Notes under the pieces: model-generated
Told to the model about the DNA's origin: nothing
The model's input: only the letters and a program-made list of their open reading frames with translations
The model's database searches: none
Position numbers and translations under genes: made by a program
Shown here: one piece after another, positions 2 through 12,067 of the stretch
Position numbering within the stretch: the first letter of the stretch is position 1
Layout: each line of letters opens with the position of its first letter
From: Candidatus Hodarchaeota archaeon
Lineage (GTDB): Archaea > Asgardarchaeota > Heimdallarchaeia > Hodarchaeales > Hodarchaeaceae
Direction of reading: 5' to 3'
DNA: 12,067 nucleotides
Assembly: GCA_029856365.1 (NCBI GenBank)
Contig: JAHQWW010000119.1
Span: forward strand, 1-12,067

Positions 2-670
2 GTTGACCCTACCCTATGTGTAGGATGTGGTACTTGTGGTAGCGTATGTCCATATGGTGCGATAAGCTTTCATCCAATAGATTTGATTTCTCATGTAAAT
101 GAGGCTATTTGTAAAGGATGTGGAGTGTGCGCAGTCGCTTGCCCTGCAAAAGCAATAACAATGCAAGGTTTCACTAATCTCCAGATCTTAAACCAAATTT
201 CTGAAGCACTCCATGGAAACTTTCCTGCTGATGAACCCAAGATTGTCGGTTTTTGTTGTAATTGGTGTTCTTATGCTGGAGCTGACCTCGCTGGAATTTC
301 ACGTTTTCAGTATCCCTCCAGCATTCGCATCATCAGAGTAATGTGTAGTGGACGAATAGACCCCTTCTTCTTATTATGGGCTTTTCTCGAAGGTGCTGAT
401 GGTGTTTTTGTTAGTGGTTGTCACCCTGGGGATTGTCATTATATCTCAGGGAATTTATACGCAAAGGAACGCATTGAGAAAATGAAGAAAGCTCTTTCTT
501 CAATAGGAATTGATTCTAGGCGTCTGACTCTTGAATGGATATCAGCCAGTGAAGGAAATCGGTTTGCTCAAGTAATAACAGAATTTACAGAATTAATCAA
601 ATCTCTTGGCCCTCTTGAACCCTTATATGTAGAAACAAGACGTGTGAGAGGTGAAATTCATGTTGTCTAA
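2..670 (+). CDS. hdrA-mvhD: HdrA-MvhD fusion, 5'-truncated by the window edge (HdrA-type C-terminal 2x[4Fe-4S] domain fused to an MvhD/FlpD [2Fe-2S] domain)
   Basis: Frame 2 is open from base 2: VDPTLCVGCGTCGSVCPYGAI...VNEAICKGCGVCAVACPAKAITMQGFTNLQILNQI, which resembles the HdrA C-terminus. MvhD signatures follow: GFCCNWCSYAGADLAG, IRVMCSGRIDP, GADGVFVSGCHPGDCHY, WISASEG. The ORF-track start at 83 is an internal codon. The HdrA FAD domain is not in the window. Confidence 0.85.
   Translation, partial: VDPTLCVGCGTCGSVCPYGAISFHPIDLISHVNEAICKGCGVCAVACPAKAITMQGFTNLQILNQISEALHGNFPADEPKIVGFCCNWCSYAGADLAGISRFQYPSSIRIIRVMCSGRIDPFFLLWAFLEGADGVFVSGCHPGDCHYISGNLYAKERIEKMKKALSSIGIDSRRLTLEWISASEGNRFAQVITEFTELIKSLGPLEPLYVETRRVRGEIHVV
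648..654 (+). promoter_or_regulatory. Shine-Dalgarno GAGGTGA for ATG at 660
   Basis: GAGGTGA-aattc-ATG. Related motifs precede starts at 1822 (GAGGTGG), 5327 (AGGTGA) and 11224 on the minus strand (GAGGTGA). Confidence 0.75.
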
Positions 671-1841
671 ACAACAGAAATTGGAAAATGAAGTTTGGAA
701 TGTCGATCGATGTGCTGGTTGCGGCATGTGTGTCGCTGCTTGTTCCCGTGGACGATTAGAGTTTAAACCAGAAATGGAACATCCCATTTTTATTCCCAAA
801 ATGAAAACTGTTGGTTTGTCGGTTGTTGACATTGATACCTGTTCATTTTGCGAGGGAATGTGCATAGAAAGTTGTCCTCGCCTAAGGGAGTGGGAAGAAA
901 GAGAACTAAAGGATGTTATATCAGTAAAAACGACACGTAATATCACAAGTAACCCCATAAATGAAATTATTATTGATCTTCTTTCAACAGGTTTTATGAA
1001 TGGATTTATTGATGCAGCTCTAATAATGGATGTAAATAGATGGGATGGGACACCATATTCTAAAATTGTCAGATCAATCGAAGAATTATATGAGGTTTCC
1101 GGTAACCAAAAAGTGTGGAACCCTATTTTATCTAACTTATATCACGAGGTTATTAAAAATGACTTCCATCAAATTGCTATTATTGGACCTCCGTGCGTCG
1201 CTCAGGCCGTTAGAAGAGTTACCGAGTCAAAAATAGAAGGTTTGGCGATTCTACGAAAGTCTATTGGCATTGTGATTGGGTTATTCTGCTCAGGATATTA
1301 TGAAACTGCTCTCCTTGAAGATCTATCAAGTCATCTTGGTGTGTCGTCTGCTGAAATTATAAGTATCACCAGTTCAGTCAAAGGGGAATACCTGGAAATC
1401 AAGCTTAACACTGGAAAAAATGTCACCTTTCCGCTAGAGGAAGAACAAAAATATCTAAGGAAAGCTTGTGCCCGGTGTACAGATTATGTTGCTAATATGG
1501 CTGATATTTCGATTGGTCAGACTGGTTCCCAGGTAGGATTTGCAAGCTTAATTACTTGGAATACGAAGGGACGCAGTTTCCTAAATAATTGCTTAAATTT
1601 GGGCTTAATTGAAGTTTCTGAGGATGTTGATCTTAAGACAATTTCTGCTGCCTGTTCTGATAAACAACGTAGAAAGCGGACACAAACTTTTGATTCTCTG
1701 TTAATCTATTCACTCGAATCACTCACGGATGAAAATCGACTTGCAGAGGCAAAAAATCGATTCATGGGTTTATTCACCCAAAAAAAGAATGAAAAAACAT
1801 TAAAAATTCGAGGTGGCTGTAATGGATGTAGTAGCTGTTAG
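660..1841 (+). CDS. FrhB/FdhB-family (F420 hydrogenase/dehydrogenase beta subunit-like) protein with N-terminal ferredoxin-like Cys motifs; divergent copy
   Basis: N-terminal CAGCGMCVAAC and CSFCEGMCIESCP. FrhB core Cys motifs IIGPPCVAQ, IGLFCSG and CARCTDYVANMADISIG. Start moved from 651 to ATG 660 on the basis of the SD. Overlaps the upstream gene by 11 nt. Confidence 0.85.
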   Translation: MLSKQQKLENEVWNVDRCAGCGMCVAACSRGRLEFKPEMEHPIFIPKMKTVGLSVVDIDTCSFCEGMCIESCPRLREWEERELKDVISVKTTRNITSNPINEIIIDLLSTGFMNGFIDAALIMDVNRWDGTPYSKIVRSIEELYEVSGNQKVWNPILSNLYHEVIKNDFHQIAIIGPPCVAQAVRRVTESKIEGLAILRKSIGIVIGLFCSGYYETALLEDLSSHLGVSSAEIISITSSVKGEYLEIKLNTGKNVTFPLEEEQKYLRKACARCTDYVANMADISIGQTGSQVGFASLITWNTKGRSFLNNCLNLGLIEVSEDVDLKTISAACSDKQRRKRTQTFDSLLIYSLESLTDENRLAEAKNRFMGLFTQKKNEKTLKIRGGCNGCSSC

Positions 1842-2499
1842 TGCAACTGATTTAATTGGGTTAAAATTAAAAAGTGTAAGTCAAAAAATTAAAAATATCC
1901 TCGAAGAGAATGAAACGGTCACTGTTACTAATTGTGATCTATTAAATGGTATTGCTTCGGGATTGATGCGAGGAGAAGTTATTATTAAGGGTTCTGTAGG
2001 TAACTACGTTGGTATGCTTAATTCGGGAGCTAAATTAATCATTGAAGGAAATGTAGGAAAATATATTGGAGATAACATGATCAAAGGAGAAATTATTGTT
2101 AAAGGTAATGCTGATTATTGTGCAGCCCCATATTGTTATGGGGGAATAGTAATCATTAAAGGAACTTGTGGAGACTTTTTGGGAACAATGAACAAAGGAG
2201 CTTCAATTCTTGTAGAAAAAGACGCAGGAAATGATCTTGGAACCTATATGCTTGCAGGAAATATCATTTTATTAAGGAACGCTGGTGAAAGAGTTGGTAA
2301 TTACCTAATTTCTGGTCGAATTTTTATTAGAGGAAAATGGAAAAGTCTTGGAAATAATACTAAAATTGAAGATCTTTCGTCTGATGATATATATTTTCTT
2401 CAAAAATTCTTTTCTACCTATAAGATCGAAGCAAAGCCAGAAGAATTTACAAAAATTATTGCAGATACCGATAAACCGTTCTATTCTAAAAAAAGTTAA
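1822..2499 (+). CDS. gltB3: Glutamate synthase domain 3 / GXGXG beta-helix subunit (GltB3, FwdC-like fold)
   Basis: Repeats of the type IxGxVGNYxGxxxxGxxIxVxG (GSVGNYVGMLNSGA, GNVGKYIGDNMIKG, GTCGDFLGTMNKGA, DAGNDLGTYMLAG, NAGERVGNYLISG). SD GAGGTGG at 1810-1816 favours ATG 1822 over GTG 1813. Adjacent to GltB2. Confidence 0.85.
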   Translation: MDVVAVSATDLIGLKLKSVSQKIKNILEENETVTVTNCDLLNGIASGLMRGEVIIKGSVGNYVGMLNSGAKLIIEGNVGKYIGDNMIKGEIIVKGNADYCAAPYCYGGIVIIKGTCGDFLGTMNKGASILVEKDAGNDLGTYMLAGNIILLRNAGERVGNYLISGRIFIRGKWKSLGNNTKIEDLSSDDIYFLQKFFSTYKIEAKPEEFTKIIADTDKPFYSKKS

Positions 2500-2522
2500 A
2501 CAAATGACGAGGGTAAGATAAC

Positions 2523-4064
2523 TTGCCAATTCTAGGAGCATATTGCGTAAATATTGATTATGAAAGATGTACTCATTGTGGTACTTGTGTAGAAGTATGT
2601 CCATATAAAGTATATGAAAAAGATGATGAGAATAGGGTTCGAATAGTTAATGATATGGCATGTGTTGGTTGTAGGATCTGCATGGAGTTCTGTCCTAATA
2701 ATGCTACTCACATCAAACCTGCTGAACCTGAATATTTCTCACGATCCCTTTGGACTTTTCAAACGGTTGAACATATTCACTTTCAAGCTCAAACTGGTAA
2801 ATATTTATTAAGAGGCTTTGGAACCTCTCGAATTATTCCACACTTTGATGATCTTGTTATCATTCCCTCTCAACTGGCCTCGCCGCCTCCTCTTGATAAA
2901 TATCGTGAGGATTGTGATGTTAGTGTAATTATTGGCGAAGAGACAGTAAAGTATCCTATTAAATTAAAAATTCCTATTATTTTTGGGGCAATGTCCTTTG
3001 GCGCTTTATCAAAAGAAGCAAAAATGTCTCTAGCAATAGCAGCTTATAAAATGGGAACTATTGCTAATACAGGGGAAGGAGGAGCCCTAAATGAAGAATA
3101 TCCTCTTGTACATGGTTACAATACACTAAAGGAACTTGAAGCTTCTGGAAAAGCTAATCCTCACCCCTGTAACGGTGGATATTTGGCTGTACAGTGGTCA
3201 ACTGGCCGCTGGGGAGTTAATCTTGATTTTCTTCATAATGCTGATGCCATAGAAGTCAAAATAGGTCAAGGCGCAAAGCCGGGGATGGGGGGACATCTTC
3301 TTGGGAAAAAAGTTGTAGAAGAAGTTGCAAGAGTGAGAGGAATCCCTATTGGTACAGATGCACTTTCTCCTCCAAGATATTATGATGCAATAAGCCCAGA
3401 AGATCTTAAAGTGCAGATAGAGATTATTAAAGATATTACTGATCATAAAGTGCCGATTCTGATAAAATTAGGCCCTAGCCGACCCTATCATGACGTAAAG
3501 ATAGCTGTAGAACTAGGAGTCGACGCTATATCTATTGATGGAATGGTTGGTGGAACTGGTGCTTCTCCAGAGTCTGTAACGCAGCATGCTGGAATTCCTA
3601 CTATTGCTTGTATTCCTCCTGCGGTTAAGGCTCTAAAAGATATGGGATTTTATCGAAAAATCAAACTTATTGCATTAGGAGGTATCCGTAATGGTGTTGA
3701 TGCTTTCAAAGCATTAGCGCTTGGTGCTGATGCTGTTGGTATTGGGACAGCTGCAGAAATCGCGATGGGATGTAGAGCTTGTATGGCATGCCATCAAGGT
3801 ATCTGTCCTTATGGTATCACGACAAACAAACCTGAGCTTCGGGCTCGTTTAGATCCCAAGAAAACGAGTCAACGCTTAGCAAATCTCTTAAAAGCAATGA
3901 CAGATGAGATTAAAATATTCACCATGCTTTCTGGACATAGAAGCATAAAAGATCTTTCAAAAGAAGATTTGAGGGCTCTAACTATTAATGCAGCAGCAAT
4001 TACAGGTGTCAAGCTTGCAGGATTGGATCGTCCATATCCTCAGATATGGGAAGATTATCAATAG
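2523..4064 (+). CDS. gltB2: Archaeal-type glutamate synthase FMN-binding subunit (GltB2) with N-terminal 2x[4Fe-4S] ferredoxin domain
   Basis: CTHCGTCVEVCP and CVGCRICMEFCP; AMSFGALS, NTGEGG, IEVKIGQGAKPGMGGHL, DGMVGGTGASP, GGIRNGVDAFKALALGADAV, and the Fe-S motif GCRACMACHQGICPYGITT. TTG start with GAGGGT upstream. Confidence 0.92.
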   Translation: MPILGAYCVNIDYERCTHCGTCVEVCPYKVYEKDDENRVRIVNDMACVGCRICMEFCPNNATHIKPAEPEYFSRSLWTFQTVEHIHFQAQTGKYLLRGFGTSRIIPHFDDLVIIPSQLASPPPLDKYREDCDVSVIIGEETVKYPIKLKIPIIFGAMSFGALSKEAKMSLAIAAYKMGTIANTGEGGALNEEYPLVHGYNTLKELEASGKANPHPCNGGYLAVQWSTGRWGVNLDFLHNADAIEVKIGQGAKPGMGGHLLGKKVVEEVARVRGIPIGTDALSPPRYYDAISPEDLKVQIEIIKDITDHKVPILIKLGPSRPYHDVKIAVELGVDAISIDGMVGGTGASPESVTQHAGIPTIACIPPAVKALKDMGFYRKIKLIALGGIRNGVDAFKALALGADAVGIGTAAEIAMGCRACMACHQGICPYGITTNKPELRARLDPKKTSQRLANLLKAMTDEIKIFTMLSGHRSIKDLSKEDLRALTINAAAITGVKLAGLDRPYPQIWEDYQ

Positions 4065-4082
4065 TAAATTGGGTAATTATCA

Positions 4083-5204
4083 ATGTATTCGCCACTAATC
4101 GAAGAAAGTCCAGGTTTTTTAAATTTAAAGAAGCAGGTCATTGACTCTGGTCTTTGTTCCCTATGCGGATCATGTGGATTATTGTGTGATAAGATAGAAT
4201 ATAGAGACTTTCCCTCTTTAAGGGAAGGTACATCCTGTAATATTACCAATGGAGCTAAGACTTGCGGAACCCTTGGTTGTTGTTATGATAATTGTCCAAT
4301 GACCTCATTTTCCAAGAAAGAACTTGAATCAGCTTTTTTTGGTAAAGAAGCGTCTGATCGTGACCTTGGAATGTATAGAAAGATTTTATCTGCACGATCT
4401 ACAGATAAAGAGATTCTCAATAGTGCACAAAATGGAGGAACAATAACCTCATTGCTGATTAATACTCTTTCAGGTAATTCCTCTGATTCCAAATATAAAG
4501 GAGCAATAGTTACTAGGAGGGGGCCAGCTTGGATTCCAACTCCTTTCTTCGCTTCAAAACCAAAGGAATTATTGTTAACAACTGGATCTATTTACTCTCG
4601 TTTGCCTCTTTCTAATCAAATACGTAGTTTACTACGTGAAAAACATTATTTAATCTTTGTTGGAACAGGTTGTCAAACTACGGGAGTTCGTAGATATCAG
4701 TACAATTTTCTCAGCAAAATACCTCCAGAATCTGCTCATATTTTTCTGATTGGTGTTTTTTGTTATGAGAACTTCCCCTATCCACAATTCAAAGCCGCAA
4801 TTCAAGAAAAAAGTAAGACTTCAATTAATGAAATAAAAAAGATGGACATTAATAAGGGCAAATTAGTCATTAATACAAAAGATGGTACATTTCTCCAGTA
4901 TCCTATTAAAGAATTTAATTCTATCGTACCAGAAGCTTGTAAATTGTGCACAAACTTCACAGCAGAATTAGCAGACATTAGTGTGGGCTCTGTGGGGGCA
5001 AAAGAGACTTGGAATACTTTAATTATACGAAGTGATGAGGGAGTTGAAGTTGTTGAAAGAGCAGAAGATAGTGGCATAATTGAAACCACAACCAAGGTTT
5101 CTGTTGAGACCATTCGGAATATCATTTCAAGAAAAAGGTTCTTGAGTGAAAAAATAATCGAAAAACGAAGAGCAAAAGACCTCTATGTTCCCAACTTCAA
5201 TTAA
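4083..5204 (+). CDS. FrhB-family (F420 hydrogenase/dehydrogenase beta subunit-like) protein, canonical copy
   Basis: SARS...AQNGGTITSLL, TTGSIYS, VGTGCQ, IGVFCYENF, CKLCTNFTAELADISVGSVG. N-terminal CSLCGSCGLLC and CCYDNCP ferredoxin-like motifs. Confidence 0.9.
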   Translation: MYSPLIEESPGFLNLKKQVIDSGLCSLCGSCGLLCDKIEYRDFPSLREGTSCNITNGAKTCGTLGCCYDNCPMTSFSKKELESAFFGKEASDRDLGMYRKILSARSTDKEILNSAQNGGTITSLLINTLSGNSSDSKYKGAIVTRRGPAWIPTPFFASKPKELLLTTGSIYSRLPLSNQIRSLLREKHYLIFVGTGCQTTGVRRYQYNFLSKIPPESAHIFLIGVFCYENFPYPQFKAAIQEKSKTSINEIKKMDINKGKLVINTKDGTFLQYPIKEFNSIVPEACKLCTNFTAELADISVGSVGAKETWNTLIIRSDEGVEVVERAEDSGIIETTTKVSVETIRNIISRKRFLSEKIIEKRRAKDLYVPNFN

Positions 5205-5326
5205 ATAGCCAAAAACTTGTAGAATTAAGACATTTGACTAAATAATAAAAAAAACGATGTTAAGCTCCCATTTTCCTAAAAAACCTATCTATAATTTATA
5301 AAAATAAGAATTTAAAGGTGAATCTT

Positions 5327-6094
5327 TTGTTTAATCTTTCAGCTTCTGAAACTTCTCTTATTTGGGGTAATCTGAGAAATTTAATTGATTTTAAATCTAT
5401 AACAGTTCCAACTGATTTGAGTCTAGTAAGTACAATTCCAGGTGAATTTCCAATAAATAATTTTCACCCAATATTTCTTGAAGTACCGAAATCCCTAAAA
5501 AAATTCAACATATCAGGTCGAAAAAATTTTTCTCAAGCTTTTATTGATAAGAATCTCAGATGGCTCCCACGGAGAATAGTTTCTCTCCCCAATTATGAAA
5601 ATGGTAAAGATGCAGACCTAGAATGTCTGAAGTCAATCATTCAACAATGGGAAAGAACATTAATCCCCGAGGAAATTCCCTGTATTGCTCTTGGAGTCAA
5701 TATCACTGGACAAAATTCTGATGGGAGAGAAGGGCAATATGTAGCAGTCTTATTAATATGGGTGAACCAAAAAACGCGAATACTTGAATTAGACTGGTTT
5801 GAAGGGCCACTGGACGATTGTATTACACCTGAATGGTATCTCCAAGTTTCTGAGATAATGAATATGAAGAAAGCTTTTATTAGAATGAAAAAACTTTTCA
5901 AAATGCCTCCAAATTGGGAGAATCCTCTTTTTTCAATTTATTGTATTCCTCCATGCTTAGGATGCTCATTAAAAAATAAATGGGAGGAAGCAAACCTTGT
6001 AGGATGGAGTTATAAGTTGTCTTATCATCAATATGAAATGTGGATGAAAGCAATAGAGTTAATTTTAACTCAAATAAAAACACTATTCTCATAG
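5327..6094 (+). CDS. Hypothetical protein (about 255 aa, apparently soluble)
   Basis: Long ORF in AT-rich DNA filling the gap between genes. In-frame TTG at 5327 follows AGGTGA (5316-5321); GTG 5318 is an alternative start. No family recognised. Confidence 0.75.
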   Translation: MFNLSASETSLIWGNLRNLIDFKSITVPTDLSLVSTIPGEFPINNFHPIFLEVPKSLKKFNISGRKNFSQAFIDKNLRWLPRRIVSLPNYENGKDADLECLKSIIQQWERTLIPEEIPCIALGVNITGQNSDGREGQYVAVLLIWVNQKTRILELDWFEGPLDDCITPEWYLQVSEIMNMKKAFIRMKKLFKMPPNWENPLFSIYCIPPCLGCSLKNKWEEANLVGWSYKLSYHQYEMWMKAIELILTQIKTLFS

Positions 6095-6275: not shown

Positions 6276-7544
6276 TTGGAATTGAAAGGTAATGAATTAA
6301 ATCCGTGGAAAAATGCACTTACACAATTACATAATACTGCTGAAGTAATTGATCTTGATAAAAATATTCAGAAAATTCTTGAAAACCCTGCAAAGACTTT
6401 AATTACCACTTTTCCAGTCACAATGGACGATGAAAGCATTGAAGTTTTTGAAGGATACCGTGTTCAGCATAATGCTGCTCGTGGCCCTTGTAAAGGCGGA
6501 ATTCGTTATTCTCCTGATGTTAATCTTGATGAAGTAAAAGCATTGGCTTCATGGATGACTTATAAAACTGCAGTAGTTAACATCCCATTCGGAGGAGCAA
6601 AAGGAGGAGTTGTAGTTGAGCCTTCCAAGCTTAGTACAAATGAATTAAAAAGGGTTACACGCAGATTTACTTATTCTATGATTGGTATGATTGGTCCAGA
6701 CAGAGACATTCCTGCTCCTGATATTAATACAACACCCGAAATAATAGCTTGGGTAATGGATACATATAGTATGATTCAAGGTTATACTGGATTAGGTGTA
6801 GTCACAGGTAAACCTTTAGAAATTGGAGGAAGTTTAGGTAGACTAGAAGCCACAGGTAGAGGTGTTTTTATTATAATGGAAGATACCCTCAGACAAAAAA
6901 AACAGAGTTCAAAAAATGTTACCATCGCTATTCAAGGATTTGGAAATGTTGGTTCAAATTTTGCGAAAATTGCACACGAACATAGTGCTAAGATTATTGC
7001 AATAACAGATGCTTTTGGTGGGTGTTATAATCCTGAAGGATTAAATATTCCAGAATTATTGGATTATGTTACCAACCATCATAATAGAACAGTCAAGAAT
7101 TACCCTAACGGGGAACCAATTACCAATAAGGAATTATTAACATTAAATGTTGATATTCTTGCTCCTTGTGCAATACAGAATCAAATTACTGCTGAGAATG
7201 CCGATAAAATCGAAGCAAAACTAATAATCGAAGGTGCCAATGGTCCCACTACTCCAATAGCGGATTCTATTCTTAATGAGAGAGATATTGTTATCATACC
7301 TGATATTTTAGCTAATTCTGGTGGGGTAACAGTTTCTTACTTCGAATGGGTACAAAGTCTTCAACATTTCTTTTGGAATGAAGATCAAGTTAATGAAGCT
7401 CTACGAAAAATTTTGGTAAGGGCATTCGCTGAGGTCAATCAAATGAAAGAGAAATATAACACCAAAGACTTTCGTACAGCCGCAATGGCCTTAGCAGTTC
7501 AGAGAGTTGCTAGGGCTATCCAGCTTAGAGGAATTTTCCCTTAA
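6276..7544 (+). CDS. gdhA: Glu/Leu/Phe/Val dehydrogenase family, glutamate dehydrogenase
   Basis: GYRVQHNAARGPCKGGIRY, MTYKTAV, PFGGAKGG, DIPAPDINT, VTGKPLEIGGSLGRLEATGRG, IQGFGNVG, EGANGPTT, PDILANSGGVTVSYFEWVQ. Confidence 0.96.
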   Translation: MELKGNELNPWKNALTQLHNTAEVIDLDKNIQKILENPAKTLITTFPVTMDDESIEVFEGYRVQHNAARGPCKGGIRYSPDVNLDEVKALASWMTYKTAVVNIPFGGAKGGVVVEPSKLSTNELKRVTRRFTYSMIGMIGPDRDIPAPDINTTPEIIAWVMDTYSMIQGYTGLGVVTGKPLEIGGSLGRLEATGRGVFIIMEDTLRQKKQSSKNVTIAIQGFGNVGSNFAKIAHEHSAKIIAITDAFGGCYNPEGLNIPELLDYVTNHHNRTVKNYPNGEPITNKELLTLNVDILAPCAIQNQITAENADKIEAKLIIEGANGPTTPIADSILNERDIVIIPDILANSGGVTVSYFEWVQSLQHFFWNEDQVNEALRKILVRAFAEVNQMKEKYNTKDFRTAAMALAVQRVARAIQLRGIFP

Positions 7545-7589
7545 ACAGCATTAACCAATTTAATTCAGTTATAAAATCTAAATAACTAG

Positions 7590-8010
7590 AAAAATTCTCA
7601 TTCAGGAAAACTCAAAGAGATTACAGGGTTTTCAAAGTACTTTAATTGGCTAAAAGCAACGTCTATACATCATATTCCTATCGTTACTGCATCTAACGGT
7701 CATCTTTTTAGTACAGAAACTTCATTAAACGCTATCGGATATTTACATCGCATCAACATAGTTCCCATAAAATCTCTAAAGATCGTCTTTTAAGTTCTAT
7801 TGTTAAGGACCTTCAAGTAAGTCCAGAAAATTATTTAGTGTTTGAGGATTCTTCTCTTGGGGTAGTTGCGGCTAAAAAAATTGTATAATGGTCATTATTA
7901 TTAATTCAAGTCATCTTCGAGAGGACAAATTTGAAGCCGATCTCATTGTGAATAATTATACAGATCCTACTCTGTATCCATTCGTAAAAAAGCTGTCCAA
8001 CTCTATATGA
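7590..8010 (+). pseudogene. Decayed HAD-superfamily phosphatase (beta-phosphoglucomutase-like), C-terminal half split over three frames
   Basis: 7590-7793 reads ...KEITGFSKYFNWLK...IPIVTASNG...SLNAIGY (motif II-like). About 7781-7888 reads LQVSPENYLVFEDSSLGVVAAKK* (motif IV, FEDS at 7841-7852). 7888-8010 reads MVIIINSSHLREDKFEADLIVNNY...*. No N-terminal DxD motif and no KPxP motif found. Confidence 0.8.
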
Positions 8011-8145
8011 TAGGGAGTTACCAAAGAAAAGGATTGAGATTAGGAACACTAACTATTGTTTGTATTCTAATTTGAACCTTTATGCATTGATTGGTTAAAA
8101 CACTTGCGCCTTTTTAACACGAATTAAAAAAATGTTGTTTTTTTT

Positions 8146-8343
8146 CTAATAATGATTTTGTACTAAAGAAGCCTTGGTCGGCACTTGTGATTCTCTTATT
8201 CTCCTATTTTCTTGTTCTAAGAGAGCTTGAGACGAAATATCTTCCGATTCATTTGTGGGGAAACACATACTAAAGCACGTGCAATATGTGCAGTTTGGAT
8301 AGAAATCCTGACAAATTTTTTCTTTTACTTTTGGGTTAATCAT
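8146..8343 (-). CDS. Small Cys-rich hypothetical protein (65 aa), possible metal-binding
   Basis: Strong SD AGGAGGT at 8360-8354, an upstream promoter module, and five Cys in CQDFYPNCTYCTCFSMC. A T7 run follows the stop on the coding strand (8132-8126). Confidence 0.7.
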   Translation of the reverse strand: MINPKVKEKICQDFYPNCTYCTCFSMCFPTNESEDISSQALLEQENRRIRESQVPTKASLVQNHY

Positions 8344-8417
8344 TTATTTCATAACCTCCTTGATAATTTTTCAATCTTTTTTTACTGGTACTCTTCATAG
8401 AACTTCTGGTTTGTTTT

Positions 8418-8474
8418 TTGACCTTTTTAGGTCAAGTAATTATAGTAACTAAGAATTTATAAAACATATGTACA
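8418..8474 (-). promoter_or_regulatory. Putative promoter plus operator, copy 1
   Basis: Minus strand: TGTACA (8474-8469), N4, TTTTATAAA (8464-8456), N22, then the GACC-N6-GGTC core of the perfect inverted repeat TTGACCT-N4-AGGTCAA (8418-8435). Confidence 0.65.
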
Positions 8475-8740
8475 AAAAAAGATTGATTTTATAAGAAAAA
8501 TCCAGATGACTAAATATAAAAACAAATAATTGCAGGTTTATTAAATATCATTTATGTACAACATGTTGATCATCTAAACTGGAATTAAATAGCCTTTTCG
8601 AGAAAATATTCTTAATAATATTAGCATTAATGACAGTTTAATTGAGAAAAATTAACATTTTGAACTCTTACATTTATCCCCCTTAAATTGGTTTTATTTC
8701 TAGAAAGAGATGCTAGATTAATTACCCATTTTCTTTGATT

Positions 8741-8760
8741 GAAAGGAAAAAATGAGAGAG
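8741..8760 (-). terminator. Pyrimidine/U-rich tract, possible archaeal intrinsic terminator
   Basis: CTCTCTCATTTTTTCCTTTC directly after the stop at 8764. Confidence 0.4.
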
Positions 8761-8763
8761 AAT

Positions 8764-9000
8764 CTAAAGATAAGGATCCTCATTATCTTCCTCAATCAAT
8801 TTATAAGTGACCTCTTTAGCTTCTCTGAAAGATTTTTCTGAGAGTTTCTTAAAAATATCGTTATTTAAACCTTTAAAGATCATATAATTTTGTATTAATA
8901 TGGCTTTAGTTCTAATGTTATCGAATTCTTTCAACTTCTCATGATTTTCATCTGTTATAGCTTTAGTGAACACATAATCTTCCAAGTCTTTAATTGTCAT
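8764..9000 (-). CDS. Small charged hypothetical protein (78 aa)
   Basis: SD GGAGG-acaaataaa-ATG; 21 nt downstream of the 9022-9216 gene; helical-looking charged composition. Confidence 0.75.
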   Translation of the reverse strand: MTIKDLEDYVFTKAITDENHEKLKEFDNIRTKAILIQNYMIFKGLNNDIFKKLSEKSFREAKEVTYKLIEEDNEDPYL

Positions 9001-9021
9001 TTTATTTGTCCTCCAAATTCT

Positions 9022-9216
9022 TTATTTCCATCTTGTTTTGAAATTTAGATCCATAAATCCTACAGAAATAAAAGCCAAAAAGCCTCCAAAAATAGAGGCC
9101 AAACAAACAACGAAGAGAATAATTCTCCAATCAAATGCAATTACAGAAATACTTGATACTAGAATAATACTGAGAAGTAAAGTTTGTGAAGTTGCAAGAT
9201 CATTTTTTAAAGCCAT
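9022..9216 (-). CDS. Small membrane protein (64 aa, two predicted TM helices)
   Basis: Hydrophobic segments TLLLSIILVSSISVIAF and IILFVVCLASIFGGFLAFISVGF; SD GAGGT upstream; co-oriented with its neighbours. Confidence 0.7.
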   Translation of the reverse strand: MALKNDLATSQTLLLSIILVSSISVIAFDWRIILFVVCLASIFGGFLAFISVGFMDLNFKTRWK

Positions 9217-9334
9217 GTTTGATCTACCTCTTATTCATGGATTATTTAACATATTTTGGGATAATACAGATAAGTGAGTCGCTTTTTCCGTTCATGAATA
9301 CTCTTTATCTGAATTATTGCAAATCAATTTCTAT

Positions 9335-9391
9335 CTGACCAATAGTGGTCGATTAAAAATACCAATATTAAGTTAATAAAATGTGTGTACA
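9335..9391 (-). promoter_or_regulatory. Putative promoter plus operator, copy 2
   Basis: Minus strand: TGTACA (9391-9386), N4, TTTTATTAA (9381-9373), N22, then the inverted repeat GACCA-N4-TGGTC (9337-9350). Spacing is identical to copy 1. Confidence 0.6.
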
Positions 9392-9604
9392 GAAGAAGCC
9401 TTATTTCCTGAAAAATTTCCAGCTTAGTAGATATGAAAATACATGATAATATTTCTAATAAGCCCTTTAGATATACAACAATATTATACATTTTCATGAA
9501 ATATAATGTCAGGAATGTTTGTTAAAAATTGGTTTTTTCATTGTTTATAACATATTGAAATGAAAAAGATATCAATCATGTTATGAAAATGTGTAAGTTT
9601 TCAT

Positions 9605-9650
9605 AAAAAAATAGATATAAAAAATTAAAAATATTAAAAAGAAAAAATGA
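9605..9650 (-). terminator. U-rich tracts, probable terminator of the membrane-arm operon
   Basis: Several T5-T7 runs on the minus strand beginning about 17 nt after the stop at 9665. Confidence 0.45.
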
Positions 9651-9664
9651 TAACAGGAGAAACA

Positions 9665-11224
9665 CTATGGGAATAGAGCGCTGGCAGCAGTGATTGCAAA
9701 ATTGGCAATAGCTGTCGGAAAGAATCCCAAGATCAACACAAAGACTGTTAATGAAATAATTGAGAGTTTCATGAATCCTCCATTGCGTAACGTCATTGCA
9801 TCAAAACCATTAATGTACTTTTCGTCCTGGTCAGGTTTTTTCATTACTAGGTACCAGATAAGCCATAAATACCCAACTGCAGCAAAGAAAGTAACAAAAA
9901 GTGCCCCTAAACCAGCAGTTACCCCAATGACTGGATTACTATTGTTGAATAACCCAAGGATAATCATTAATTTGGACCAAAAACCGCCTGTAAAGGGGAT
10001 AGAAGCTAATGAAAATAATCCAATGGTAAAACAGACCCCAATTAAGGGATCTCGCCGACCTAGGCCTTTATAATGATCTAGATAATATGAGCCTGTAGAA
10101 TAAATCAAATATCCAGTTATCATAAAGAGTACTCCCTTCGCTGCTGCATGATTTAAAGCGTGAAAGATAGTTCCACTTATTCCAAGGAGATTTCCAGCGC
10201 CTAATCCAGTTATCAAATAACCCATATGAGAAATCGTACTGAATGCAAATATCCGCTTCAAGTTTCGTGCTTGGGGATCTTTTCGCATAAATTGAATTAT
10301 TGCAAAGATATTTCCCTGAAGAGAGGTTAAAATTCCTAAAATAATTAGAAAATTGCTCCAAACACTACCTTGGAAAGTTCCTCCAACATCAGCCATTGTA
10401 ACTGGTATCACTGTGAAAACAATTCGCAAAATACCATATGTGCCACCAATGACAATAATTCCTGATAACATTGCATGAGCTGGTGGTGGGGCTGCTGGGT
10501 GGGCATCAGGTAACCAAGTATTGAGGAAGAAGAAAGCTGCGGTTACTCCAAAACCGAATATCATACAAAGAATAGCAACATAGAGAACTGGTGATTCCAT
10601 TAACGGATTTAATATTCTTAATTCATTAAAACTCAGTGTTCCAGCAATTCCATATAGTAACGCGACTCCAAAGAGATAAAGAAGACTACCTGTGCTACTC
10701 ATTATGAGATACTTAAAACCAGCTTCAGATGATTCTCTGCTGCGATAAAAGCCAACCATTGCATATGCACAGAGAACCATACTTTCCCACGCAACGAATA
10801 ATGTGAAGTAATCAGTTACAAGAACGATTAAGTTCAATCCTGCAACTACTGCGAATAGAATGGCATAGAAATGAGCGAGATCGTTGTGTTCATGCATGAA
10901 GTTAATAGAATAGATACATACTGCAGCATGAATGAGTGTAAAGATAAAGATAAAGAACATAGATGTTAAATCCGATTGTAATACTAATAGAATTCTTTCT
11001 TTTATTACGGGATGAGGAGAACTAGAACTGAGAAGTTGCATCCCAAAAATAATGGCAAGTATTAAATCTAACATGGAAGAAAAGACTGCAATCATGTGGG
11101 AAATGATTTTTTTACGATTAGATACATCTAGTAATTTTTCCAGACCAATAAGCAAAAAGCTTGTTATAACTGGAACTATAACAAATATTAGAAGGGGTAA
11201 TTCAAATCCTAACACAGCTGGCAC
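9665..11224 (-). CDS. Proton-conducting antiporter-like membrane subunit (NuoM/NuoN/MrpD/MbhH family), last gene of its operon
   Basis: Highly hydrophobic; DYFTLFVAWESM, EAGFKYLIMSSTGS, WLPDAHPAAP, LKRIFAFSTISHMGY, HALNHAAAKGVLF, IPFTGGFWSK. GTG start with SD GAGGTGA (11235-11229) overlapping the upstream stop. Confidence 0.92.
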   Translation of the reverse strand: MPAVLGFELPLLIFVIVPVITSFLLIGLEKLLDVSNRKKIISHMIAVFSSMLDLILAIIFGMQLLSSSSPHPVIKERILLVLQSDLTSMFFIFIFTLIHAAVCIYSINFMHEHNDLAHFYAILFAVVAGLNLIVLVTDYFTLFVAWESMVLCAYAMVGFYRSRESSEAGFKYLIMSSTGSLLYLFGVALLYGIAGTLSFNELRILNPLMESPVLYVAILCMIFGFGVTAAFFFLNTWLPDAHPAAPPPAHAMLSGIIVIGGTYGILRIVFTVIPVTMADVGGTFQGSVWSNFLIILGILTSLQGNIFAIIQFMRKDPQARNLKRIFAFSTISHMGYLITGLGAGNLLGISGTIFHALNHAAAKGVLFMITGYLIYSTGSYYLDHYKGLGRRDPLIGVCFTIGLFSLASIPFTGGFWSKLMIILGLFNNSNPVIGVTAGLGALFVTFFAAVGYLWLIWYLVMKKPDQDEKYINGFDAMTLRNGGFMKLSIISLTVFVLILGFFPTAIANFAITAASALFP

Positions 11225-11233
11225 AATCTCACC

Positions 11234-12067
11234 TCAAAAGAATATGAATATCAGCATTACAGCTAATATAACTAATCCAATCAAGCTAAAATTATAATTC
11301 AGATCGCCAGTCTGGAGTCTTCGCAATCTCCAAAAGCCATTCATTATGATATTCTGACAGCTTTGAATAAAGTGGTCAATGTAGAAACCTTCTGCTGCAA
11401 GTATTTGTAACATTCTTAGATAACCATTATTCTTTATAAATACTATCTCTTTTGATCCATCTTTGTAAAGCAGATAGCTGCTAAGTGCCCCTATAGTTAC
11501 AGAAGTGAGGGTAAAAAGGGTAGGAACCAACGTTTCGATCGTTGGGAGGAGTAAAAGCTCATAATGAGAGAAAGTATGATAAAAAGCTACATCACTGATT
11601 GAGAAGTAAAATTGCATTTGATCAAAAAATACAGTCATCATTGGTGCCATAAATCCAGTGATGACCGTAAAACTAGCAAGAACTATTACAACTGTCGTCA
11701 TAAATATACCTGGTCTGTGTACTTCTAAATTCTTAGGTTTTTCACCCTTAAAAACCATTAAGTATAGTCGAATAGAATAAGCAGCTGTTAATCCTGCGGT
11801 TACAACTCCTAAAATGAAAAGAATTAACGCAATTGGAGCCATATTGTGCCCAGCCTGGAATAATTCCCAAGCAGCACCTAATACAGATTCTTTCGAGAAA
11901 TAGCCATTCAAAGGAGGAATACCTGAAAGCGCAAGTATTCCAATAAACATTGGAATTGCGATTATTCTTAATTCGGAAAAAAGTCCTCCCATCTTTTTGA
12001 TATTTCTTTCATTATGAAGGGAGTGGATTATTGCACCTGCTGAAAGGAATAATAAAGCCTTAAAGAT
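11234..12067 (-). CDS. nuoL: NuoL/FpoL/MrpA-like antiporter subunit, C-terminal part (5'-truncated by the window edge)
   Basis: Frame open to the window end: IFKALLFLSAGAIIHSLHNERNIKKMGGL, then LALSGIPPLNGYFSKESVL, LTAAYSIRL and C-terminal GFYIDHF...LRRLQTGDLNYN (lateral helix plus final TM). Confidence 0.85.
   Translation of the reverse strand: MFKALLFLSAGAIIHSLHNERNIKKMGGLFSELRIIAIPMFIGILALSGIPPLNGYFSKESVLGAAWELFQAGHNMAPIALILFILGVVTAGLTAAYSIRLYLMVFKGEKPKNLEVHRPGIFMTTVVIVLASFTVITGFMAPMMTVFFDQMQFYFSISDVAFYHTFSHYELLLLPTIETLVPTLFTLTSVTIGALSSYLLYKDGSKEIVFIKNNGYLRMLQILAAEGFYIDHFIQSCQNIIMNGFWRLRRLQTGDLNYNFSLIGLVILAVMLIFIFF

Follow-up and report, generated by a model that had tools for sequence, protein, structure and literature searches.

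The stretch of DNA analysed here (the window) is an entire contig of 12,067 bp, C148, from an Asgard archaeal (Hodarchaeales-type, judged by its relatives) metagenome-assembled genome (MAG; label G000) of 4.24 Mb, which is 83.6% complete and has a GC content of 35%. Five plus-strand genes, defined by open reading frame (ORF) listing and inspection of start and stop codons, span positions 2-5204 and encode the C-terminus of HdrA with MvhD, the FrhB-family protein FrhB1, GltB3, a ferredoxin domain-GltB2 fusion (Fd-GltB2), and a second FrhB-family protein, FrhB2. The operon is classed here with the Hdr-type modular complexes built of flavin and iron-sulfur (Fe-S) subunits. Gene content, conserved linkage, cofactor and active-site motifs, and the presence in the MAG of genes for the biosynthesis of coenzyme F420 have all been established. 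The reading favoured here, still a tentative one, is that HdrA-MvhD, FrhB1, GltB3 and Fd-GltB2 form the core of a single complex of the Hdr type that connects ferredoxin and F420 with the glutamate/2-oxoglutarate pair. A bolder and more doubtful proposal is that this is a new kind of bifurcating or confurcating enzyme, in which 2-oxoglutarate plus ammonium/glutamate replaces the heterodisulfide, and the same core is reused in archaea and bacteria with F420 (FrhB2), NADH (NuoEF) or thiol (HdrBC) modules. In that case two F420H2 would be obtained in this archaeon from glutamate oxidation and reduced ferredoxin, or the reverse would take place.

Modules encoded by the operon

The HdrA-MvhD reading frame (2-670) is open at its 5' end and terminated by TAA; the gene, of 1160 codons, is truncated by the end of the contig, and just its final 222 codons are in the window. 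FrhB1 (660-1841; 393 amino acids, aa), GltB3 (1822-2499; 225 aa), Fd-GltB2 (2523-4064; 513 aa) and FrhB2 (4083-5204; 373 aa) follow on the plus strand, and all start with ATG except Fd-GltB2, which starts with TTG. The operon is tight, because its genes overlap by 11 and 20 nucleotides (nt) or are spaced by 23 and 18 nt, and a purine-rich ribosome-binding site precedes each start. The frhB1 gene overlaps both the end of the MvhD gene and the start of that for GltB3. Start codons of the window genes agree with the public gene calls on near-identical contigs. The overlaps and gaps are exactly those given in an earlier note made from the window sequence alone, which had also correctly stated that hydrogenase, HdrB/C, formate dehydrogenase and GltD are missing among the five genes (Pfam, NCBIfam).

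The upstream part of HdrA has been recovered from public metagenome contigs. Three near-identical contigs with DNA are available (L070-L072; a fourth is listed without DNA). They share 99.85% identity with the window and 99.1% with C172, a contig of the same MAG which ends within a long hdrA gene, preceded by a 135-aa ORF and by an ELFV-dehydrogenase-like gene. With the 1174-aa HdrA of a relative as reference, the C172 fragment corresponds to residues 14-894, and the window fragment to residues 953-1175, to which it is 95% identical. Since L070-L072 carry the whole locus uninterrupted, about 162 nt are unassembled between C172 and the window contig. The gene order in L070 is isoleucyl-tRNA synthetase, a helix-turn-helix regulator (minus strand), the ELFV-like gene (397 aa), the 135-aa ORF, HdrA-MvhD (1160 aa), FrhB1 (393), GltB3 (225), GltB2 (513), FrhB2 (373), a 258-aa ORF, glutamate dehydrogenase (GDH; 422), small ORFs, and complex-I-like M/N and L subunits (minus strand).

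Two Fer4 motifs and a FlpD/MvhD domain (E 6e-55, FlpD over its full length; Pfam) are found in the product of window 2-670, which matches positions 574-774 of the NCBIfam HdrA2 model. In comparisons to PDB sequences, the full L070 protein matches HdrA of 8RVU/5ODC with E about 1e-210, and its MvhD part matches 5ODC_D with E 8e-50. Residues 7-370 of the 1160-aa protein correspond to HdrA residues 154-517, a thioredoxin-reductase domain with an inserted ferredoxin domain. Residues 449-627 correspond to HdrA 10-188, which comprises the N-terminal cluster domain and the beginning of another reductase domain; residues 868-1009 to HdrA 515-654, the C-terminal 2x[4Fe-4S] ferredoxin domain; and residues 1016-1143 to MvhD, the [2Fe-2S] domain. 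Judged by this arrangement of its sequence, the protein is the tandem (type II) form of HdrA fused to MvhD, a build denominated type II, A3+MVH, and reported for methane-metabolising archaea (PMC12054007). Both HdrA halves retain the GxGxxG dinucleotide motif (GGGIAG) and the equivalents of E356 and K409, a pair treated as a mark of bifurcating HdrA (PMC12054007). What lies upstream is thus the complete FAD (flavin adenine dinucleotide)-binding HdrA which the earlier note had surmised. At least three further Hdr loci have been identified in the MAG, on contigs C19, C75 and C151. On C19 (4139-10422), genes for HdrC, HdrB and a CCG/Fer4 protein are accompanied by those for another type II HdrA, 1038 aa long, and for MvhD as a separate protein, the DNA of which is 68% identical to the window MvhD DNA. 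C75 carries the end of an HdrA-MvhD gene plus HdrC and HdrB, and C151 a 799-aa HdrA2-type gene.

In Fd-GltB2 an N-terminal 2x[4Fe-4S] ferredoxin domain (Fer4 dicluster) is fused to the flavin mononucleotide (FMN) 'synthase' domain of the glutamate synthase large subunit (Glu_synthase, E 8e-110; Pfam). Alignment to residues 870-1202 of the Synechocystis ferredoxin-dependent glutamate synthase (Fd-GltS; 1LLW) shows that E903, Q969, K972 and R992 are conserved. These residues line the 2-oxoglutarate/2-iminoglutarate site in Fd-GltS structures. Their equivalents are invariant in 42 homologues, as are the four cysteines of the cluster motif found beside the FMN site, CxxCxxCxxxxCP (residues 416-428; window 3768-3806). 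The glutamate synthase (GltS) counterpart is the three-cysteine Cx5Cx4C motif of a [3Fe-4S] cluster, and the four-cysteine motif suggests a [4Fe-4S] cluster, hence a different potential, in this GltB2 family. GltB2 is the sole strong match to Glu_synthase (PF01645) in the MAG (368 bits); two weak partial matches score 29 and 26 bits elsewhere.

The GATase_2 amidotransferase (GltB1, PF00310) has no match in the 83.6%-complete MAG, nor in the complete locus L070, and no amidotransferase gene was found in any related locus examined. Likewise, the central domain Glu_syn_central (PF04898) has no match in the MAG. Because the module is the synthase half only, free ammonium is implied instead of glutamine. 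GltB3 is a GXGXG beta-helix (PF01493, 53 bits) encoded by a separate gene, which adjoins that of GltB2 in every related locus; it is recognized by FwdC-type models in NCBIfam, and matches PDB FwdC chains with E about 1e-14. More than 7,800 relatives of GltB2 were found at E <= 1e-60. The names used for this family in the sources are 'glutamate synthase-related' or 'FMN-binding glutamate synthase family', and a few members are named 'methylamine-glutamate N-methyltransferase subunit C'. An N-methylglutamate synthase (MgsABC) was considered and rejected, since a GltB1-like subunit is missing and the Fe-S/Hdr context is that of a redox enzyme.

The two FrhB proteins had been taken for twins, a description that does not hold, as they are about 21% identical and differ in cofactor motifs, the MvhD-adjacent one having no FAD loops. 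Of the FrhB domains, FrhB1 features FrhB_FdhB_C only, plus an N-terminal 2x[4Fe-4S] ferredoxin domain (Pfam). Its top PDB sequence match is 8RJA_E (FwdI; E 3.7e-30), to which the structure model (predicted local distance difference test, pLDDT, 82) is related with a template modelling (TM) score of 0.70; the fold also matches 8RIU_B and FdhB/ElpB of Hdr complexes. FAD is enclosed in FrhB by three loops, 24-QDGG, G73-T77 and I132-F138 (PMC3930138). The loop sequences QDGG, AGTKYT and YCMENF were sought in the FrhB1 alignment, and are missing across the whole clade, bacterial members included; at these positions FrhB1 has PINEIIID, SGNQKVW and LFCSGYY, respectively. The [4Fe-4S] cysteines C179, C210, C270 and C273 are invariant in 29 homologues, and all eight cysteines of the N-terminal ferredoxin domain are retained. 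Because the three FAD loops are replaced while the Fe-S cysteines are kept, FrhB1 is read as an Fe-S adaptor, probably set between MvhD and GltB2. FrhB1 ends with the tail GGCNGCSSC (CxxCxxC; window 1813-1838), which is unstructured in the model (pLDDT <50). The tail occurs in Hodarchaeales, neighbouring clades and some distant members, is missing from HdrCB-containing Asgard versions, and may provide an extra metal or cluster ligand.

An FrhB-GltB interface had also been anticipated, and one is predicted between FrhB1 and GltB2, but its support is weak. The two-chain model reached an ipSAE of 0.35 versus 0.00 for the best of three controls, and was rated 'weak support'; at least 85% of the contacts agree between runs, and partner pLDDT is at least 78. 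The ipSAE mark is reached by 58 of 80 solved complexes and by 2 of 110 mismatched pairs; just 7 of those 80 solved complexes, and both mismatches, have an ipSAE <=0.60.

FrhB2 has both FrhB_FdhB_N and FrhB_FdhB_C (Pfam), and a Cys-rich, ferredoxin-like N-terminus. It matches 8RIU_B, the F420-reducing zeta subunit of carbon monoxide dehydrogenase (CODH), with E 2e-54 over residues 7-354, and FrhB 3ZFS_C with E 6e-44 (PDB). The FAD loops are intact (AQNGGTIT, TGSIYS, VFCYENF), and the cysteines of PC.., FC and CxxC are present. FrhB2 probably is the F420/F420H2 site and, on the best reading of its motifs, the sole plausible one of the operon. The F420 link that the earlier note ascribed to the FrhB proteins would thus hold for the canonical FrhB2, but not for the MvhD-adjacent FrhB1. 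F420 biosynthesis genes were sought in the MAG; since CofH (431 bits, cut-off 374), an adjacent CofG-like gene, CofD and two CofE were found, F420 is probably made. CofH is present in the genomes G000, G074 and G071 and missing from G001, G005 and G006; CofE-family genes occur in five of the five relatives tested.

Distant relatives of FrhB2 (39-44% identity) sit in HdrBC-FrhB-HdrA-MvhD-HdrA clusters, and FrhB2 is therefore placed in an Hdr-associated FrhB lineage. A role as FpoF-type input of the neighbouring complex-I-like gene cluster was rejected as its principal one, since frhB2 is located 18 nt after the GltB2 gene and on the strand opposite to nuo, G074 keeps the nuo neighbours without FrhB2, and the distant relatives lie in Hdr clusters. 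A third FrhB-family gene (491 aa) is found in the MAG on contig C96, 29965-31440 (L081:5966-7441); its FAD loops are intact (GQDGGVVT), its C-terminus carries a long extension, and its orthologues are found in G074 and G075.

A conserved core and a variable third module

The core HdrA-MvhD, FrhB1, GltB3, GltB2 has been found in about 20 loci, from four Asgard families, one Thermoproteota MAG and bacteria. Among the 21 other genomes of the genus, 6 have FrhB1 orthologues, of 77-87% identity, and orthologues of 35-40% identity are found in four genomes of three other Asgard families. The core is also present in CP070649, two metagenome contigs, one Geothermarchaeales MAG and three bacterial contigs. 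All three GltB2 homologues (61-68% identity) which were chosen from the top 120 for analysis of gene context have it. Wherever the contig allows, the order MvhD-bearing HdrA, FrhB1, GltB3, GltB2 is kept. FrhB1 is always located between the MvhD-bearing HdrA and the GXGXG gene, HdrC-HdrB intervening in some loci. In the genus the core is preceded by the ELFV-like and the 135-aa genes. The linkage, on which the hypothesis of the earlier note hinged, is thus kept well beyond the genus.

Other redox modules found next to the core vary in type and position. HdrC-HdrB genes are inserted between MvhD and FrhB1 in G001, G005, G006 and L076, and lie ahead of HdrA in L082. In the bacterial contigs L074, L083 and L084, NuoE-NuoF and a small NuoG-like protein are encoded ahead of HdrA. 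Within and near the genus, the slot after GltB2 is occupied by FrhB2 in this MAG, G076 and G077, by HdrC-HdrB in G071, by FrhB2, HdrC and HdrB in CP070649, and by nothing in G074; the FrhB2 gene of L073 has this position, too. No FrhB2 orthologue was found anywhere in the genomes of G074 (99% complete) and G071, both of which have CofH, and FrhB2 is, by gene distribution, an accessory, lineage-variable member of the operon. The absence of HdrBC noticed in the earlier note is true of this strain, as the complete locus L070 shows, but not of the operon family, given that relatives carry HdrC-HdrB. Such a variable third module (FrhB2, HdrC-HdrB, both, none, or NuoE-NuoF) fits a constant ferredoxin and glutamate core having interchangeable mid-potential partners.

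A rearranged locus, L077, is found in the Heimdall-group genome CP070760.1 (7609-11545). Here GltB2 has 453 aa and no ferredoxin domain; FrhB2 (76% identical to that of the window), HdrC and HdrB come next, and a peptide ABC transporter replaces HdrA, FrhB1 and GltB3 upstream.

The proposed reaction and its alternatives

From these modules we infer a single complex, its path of electrons, its bifurcating or confurcating mode and its direction. The product of the operon, most of which is held by the window, would be a soluble Fe-S flavoprotein complex. The FMN site of GltB2 would interconvert glutamate with 2-oxoglutarate and free ammonium, given that a glutaminase is missing. Electrons would move along the FMN, the GltB2 clusters, the FrhB1 clusters, the MvhD [2Fe-2S] cluster and the HdrA flavin; the ferredoxin domains of HdrA would exchange electrons with ferredoxin, and in this strain FrhB2, by its FAD, would contribute the F420/F420H2 site. 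The overall reaction would be reversible: 2 F420H2 + Fd(ox) + 2-oxoglutarate + NH4+ <-> 2 F420 + Fd(red) + glutamate, where Fd is ferredoxin. The 2-oxoglutarate/glutamate couple would play the high-potential role that the heterodisulfide has in methanogen Hdr. The textbook potential of ferredoxin is about -500 mV, and that of 2-oxoglutarate + NH4+/glutamate about -140 mV, equal to that of CoM-S-S-CoB, the heterodisulfide of coenzymes M and B; F420 and NADH have potentials of -340 mV and -320 mV, respectively. The mean of the ferredoxin and glutamate couples, about -320 mV, is near F420 and NADH, and the reaction would therefore be close to equilibrium. The mid-potential role would fall to FrhB2, to NuoEF and perhaps to HdrBC. 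The confurcating direction would be attractive in an amino-acid-using archaeon, as glutamate and reduced ferredoxin, the latter coming from 2-oxoglutarate oxidation, would yield F420H2. Precedents are available. HdrA receives its electrons through MvhD from an FrhB-family subunit in the solved structures of Elp-Hdr and Fdh-Hdr (PMC12350162), and in enzymes of Ca. Ethanoperedens modules made of ferredoxin and FrhB domains plug onto the Fe-S chains of other enzymes (PMC11493965).

Several observations weigh against this assignment. The mid-potential donor sits on the MvhD arm of solved Hdr complexes, and a glutamate module placed there would reverse the usual roles. A GDH with intact motif is encoded next door, and the apparent need for a second enzyme acting on glutamate/2-oxoglutarate is unexplained. 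The loss of FAD loops in FrhB1 is a motif argument, and the protein may still bind flavin; the score of the GltB2-FrhB1 complex is weak. HdrB and HdrC are missing from this operon (complete locus L070), and the MAG pair closest to the slot-type HdrC-HdrB of G071, located on C75, is just 45-46% identical to it. Lastly, G074 and G071 lack FrhB2 genome-wide, and the G074 operon lacks HdrC-HdrB as well. A core found without an F420 module, and in G074 without any obvious third partner, is therefore fitted equally well by a simple, non-bifurcating enzyme.

Such an enzyme, the first of three alternatives and an unlikely though not a negligible one, would be a ferredoxin- or F420H2-dependent, ammonium-using glutamate synthase for nitrogen assimilation, in which HdrA-MvhD-FrhB1 would serve as an input wire replacing GltD or the docking of plant-type ferredoxin. 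It would readily account for G074, where the core stands by itself, the operon being devoid of a third redox module and the genome of FrhB2. All synthase-site residues are kept in GltB2, no other large subunit of glutamate synthase is encoded by the MAG, and ferredoxin-dependent glutamate synthases are an established, textbook class of enzymes. These, however, take electrons from ferredoxin without an additional 1160-aa flavoprotein; the bifurcation-linked E356/K409 pair is conserved in both HdrA flavin domains, and a third redox module (HdrCB, NuoEF or FrhB2) is featured by most lineages. The operon moreover lacks a glutaminase, and adjoins a GDH that is itself able to assimilate ammonium.

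It is improbable that two separate enzymes are encoded side by side, one being GltB3-GltB2-FrhB2, an F420-dependent, ammonium-using enzyme resembling the F420-dependent glutamate synthase (FGltS) of methanogens, the other an independent Hdr-type oxidoreductase made of HdrA-MvhD-FrhB1. A glutamate synthase that depends on F420 and includes an FrhB-like subunit is thought to exist in methanogens (PMC3087415, PMC9012536), the FrhB2 gene starts just 18 nt after that for GltB2, and CP070760 has GltB2-FrhB2-HdrC-HdrB with no HdrA, FrhB1 or GltB3 directly upstream. Yet FrhB1-GXGXG-GltB2 follow the MvhD-bearing HdrA in about 20 loci, even in those lacking FrhB2, where GltB2 would be left with no electron partner. 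The overlaps of the FrhB1 gene with the end of the MvhD gene and the start of that for GltB3 tie together the supposed halves; FrhB1, having no FAD-loop flavin site, would be no terminal F420 module for HdrA; and distant FrhB2 relatives are found in Hdr clusters, not in glutamate synthase clusters.

The least probable alternative is that GltB2/GltB3 acts on a different substrate (another 2-oxo acid, an imine, or that of an N-methylglutamate-synthase-like reaction) within an Hdr-linked reductase of other specificity: vague family names (a few of them pointing to the methylamine-glutamate N-methyltransferase), the higher scores of the GXGXG protein against FwdC models than against GltS, and the four cluster cysteines in place of three would fit it, but E903, Q969, K972 and R992 are invariant, the operon is flanked in distant lineages by GDH genes, and in Hodarchaeales also by a GDH-like paralogue, and N-methylglutamate synthase requires a GltB1-like subunit that has no match in the MAG.

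If the single-complex reading is correct, its significance would stem from the couple involved, as glutamate/2-oxoglutarate is a hub between carbon and nitrogen metabolism. To our knowledge, Hdr-type bifurcation has so far been known mainly from methanogens and from sulfur metabolism. Many uncultured anaerobes, among which Asgard archaea, Thermoproteota and Anaerolineae-type bacteria, could oxidise glutamate without paying the thermodynamic price of an NAD(P)-linked GDH or, alternatively, use the amination of 2-oxoglutarate to produce reduced ferredoxin. The couple would be a new class of acceptor among bifurcating enzymes. Hodarchaeales are close relatives of the eukaryotic host lineage, and their proposed amino-acid-based metabolism would gain a concrete step linked to F420 and ferredoxin. 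The contributions of this window are the canonical FrhB2 module, the swap of slot with HdrC-HdrB among close relatives, and the F420 pathway in the MAG. Because one slot holds FrhB2, HdrC-HdrB, both or nothing, bifurcating scaffolds plausibly evolve by swapping peripheral modules.

Flanking genes and comparison with known systems

The operon is followed on the plus strand by hyp258, a conserved hypothetical gene (5318-6094; 258 aa), and by a GDH gene (6276-7544; 422 aa). A 113-nt AT-rich spacer with a TATA-like box precedes hyp258. The protein has no Pfam or NCBIfam match, its protein-atlas scores are under 0.9, and its structure model is poor (pLDDT 48). The gene lies between operon and GDH in the genus and in CP070649, and orthologues at the same position are found in the relatives G074, G076, G071 and L073; hyp258 is unproven, a candidate member of the system at most. 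GDH is identified by GdhA_Arch (E 9e-156; NCBIfam) and ELFV_dehydrog (Pfam), and its catalytic motif GGAKGG is intact in alignments. GDH genes adjoin the core in L069, L073, L076 and L084.

A GDH paralogue, the ELFV-like gene mentioned above (L070:4823-6016, plus strand; also on C172), is located just upstream of the operon. The product, 397-420 aa long and 81-94% identical in the genus, has GGAQAG in place of GGAKGG, so that the catalytic Lys is replaced by Gln; the equivalents of K89, K113 and D165 and the dinucleotide motif GFGxVG are kept. Possibly it is a pseudoenzyme, or acts as a sensor or a subunit. The 135-aa ORF (L070:6029-6436, plus strand), found between the paralogue and hdrA, encodes a protein beginning with MFNLFISYS. 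It has no Pfam match; by language-model features it comes closest to TIR-domain clusters (score 0.94), and its position is kept in the genus. A TIR-like gene would sit here inside a redox operon.

Downstream of GDH the window is AT-rich (7545-9664; 27-31% GC versus 35% for the genome), and hosts just small ORFs of 64-79 codons on both strands. The remainder (9665-12067, minus strand) belongs to a complex-I-like cluster, also found in L080 (G074:C4:44000-63000), which includes genes for NuoB, a NuoC/D fusion, NuoH, NuoI, NuoK, NuoL and NuoM/N-like proteins. No NuoE/F/G gene was found in the stretch read in the close relative G074, and the cluster is for this reason regarded as of the 11-subunit type, the donor of which could be ferredoxin or F420H2.

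In the open literature (subscription-only papers being outside the scope) no description was found, for Asgard archaea or elsewhere, of HdrA-MvhD joined to FrhB and a glutaminase-less GltB2/GltB3. Several systems are partly similar. The ferredoxin- and NADPH-dependent glutamate synthases (1LLW/1OFD, 1EA0, 6S6X) share with the operon products the FMN synthase domain and its residues E903, Q969, K972 and R992, as well as an Fe-S cluster beside FMN and the GXGXG beta-helix. In contrast, the module described here is split over two genes, has an extra N-terminal 2x[4Fe-4S] domain and four cluster cysteines, not three, and lacks the amidotransferase domain, the central domain and GltD. FGltS of methanogens presumably includes a glutamine amidotransferase subunit, of which the operon has none. 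The FGltS genes (MTH193 being the FrhB-like subunit; PMC3087415, PMC3448663) and the FrhB10-GltS clusters of anaerobic methanotrophic archaea (ANME; PMC9012536) are alike in that split GltB2/GltB3 genes lie beside an FrhB-family gene; in ANME, FrhB paralogues lie near glutamate synthase subunits (PMC9012536). F420 is the proposed reductant of FGltS, and the enzyme itself is putative (PMC3087415). Unlike FGltS, the genes described here are linked to HdrA-MvhD, and the two FrhB proteins are very different from each other.

Elp-Hdr (ElpABC-HdrABC, 8RVU) and FdhAB-MvhD-HdrABC (7BKB) of methanogens carry out F420H2- or formate-driven flavin-based electron bifurcation (PMC12350162). The operon resembles them in having an HdrA with bifurcation-linked residues, an MvhD [2Fe-2S] connector and an FrhB-family subunit in the MvhD arm, and F420 is a likely carrier, here through FrhB2. 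It differs in that HdrA is of the tandem type II and fused to MvhD, HdrB/HdrC are missing, and the MvhD-adjacent FrhB is devoid of flavin loops and precedes the FMN module of a glutamate synthase; the organism, moreover, is no methanogen and has no known CoM-S-S-CoB. The type II A3+MVH clusters of methane- and alkane-oxidising archaea (PMC12054007) similarly feature tandem HdrA proteins that reach about 1180 aa and combine two thioredoxin-reductase domains with a fused MvhD, as well as clustered F420 modules of the FrhB/FdhB type. In contrast to the operon, they carry a non-catalytic molybdopterin protein and HdrBC/D, and none has been reported with glutamate synthase subunits or in Asgard archaea (PMC12054007). 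The association of an N-terminal 2x[4Fe-4S] ferredoxin domain with an FrhB domain recurs in the CODH zeta subunit (8RIU_B) and FwdI (8RJA_E) of Ca. Ethanoperedens (PMC11493965). Both dock on the Fe-S chain of another enzyme, bind FAD and reduce F420, whereas FrhB1 has no FAD loops; their partners are CODH or Fwd, and those of FrhB1 would be HdrA-MvhD and GltB2/3.

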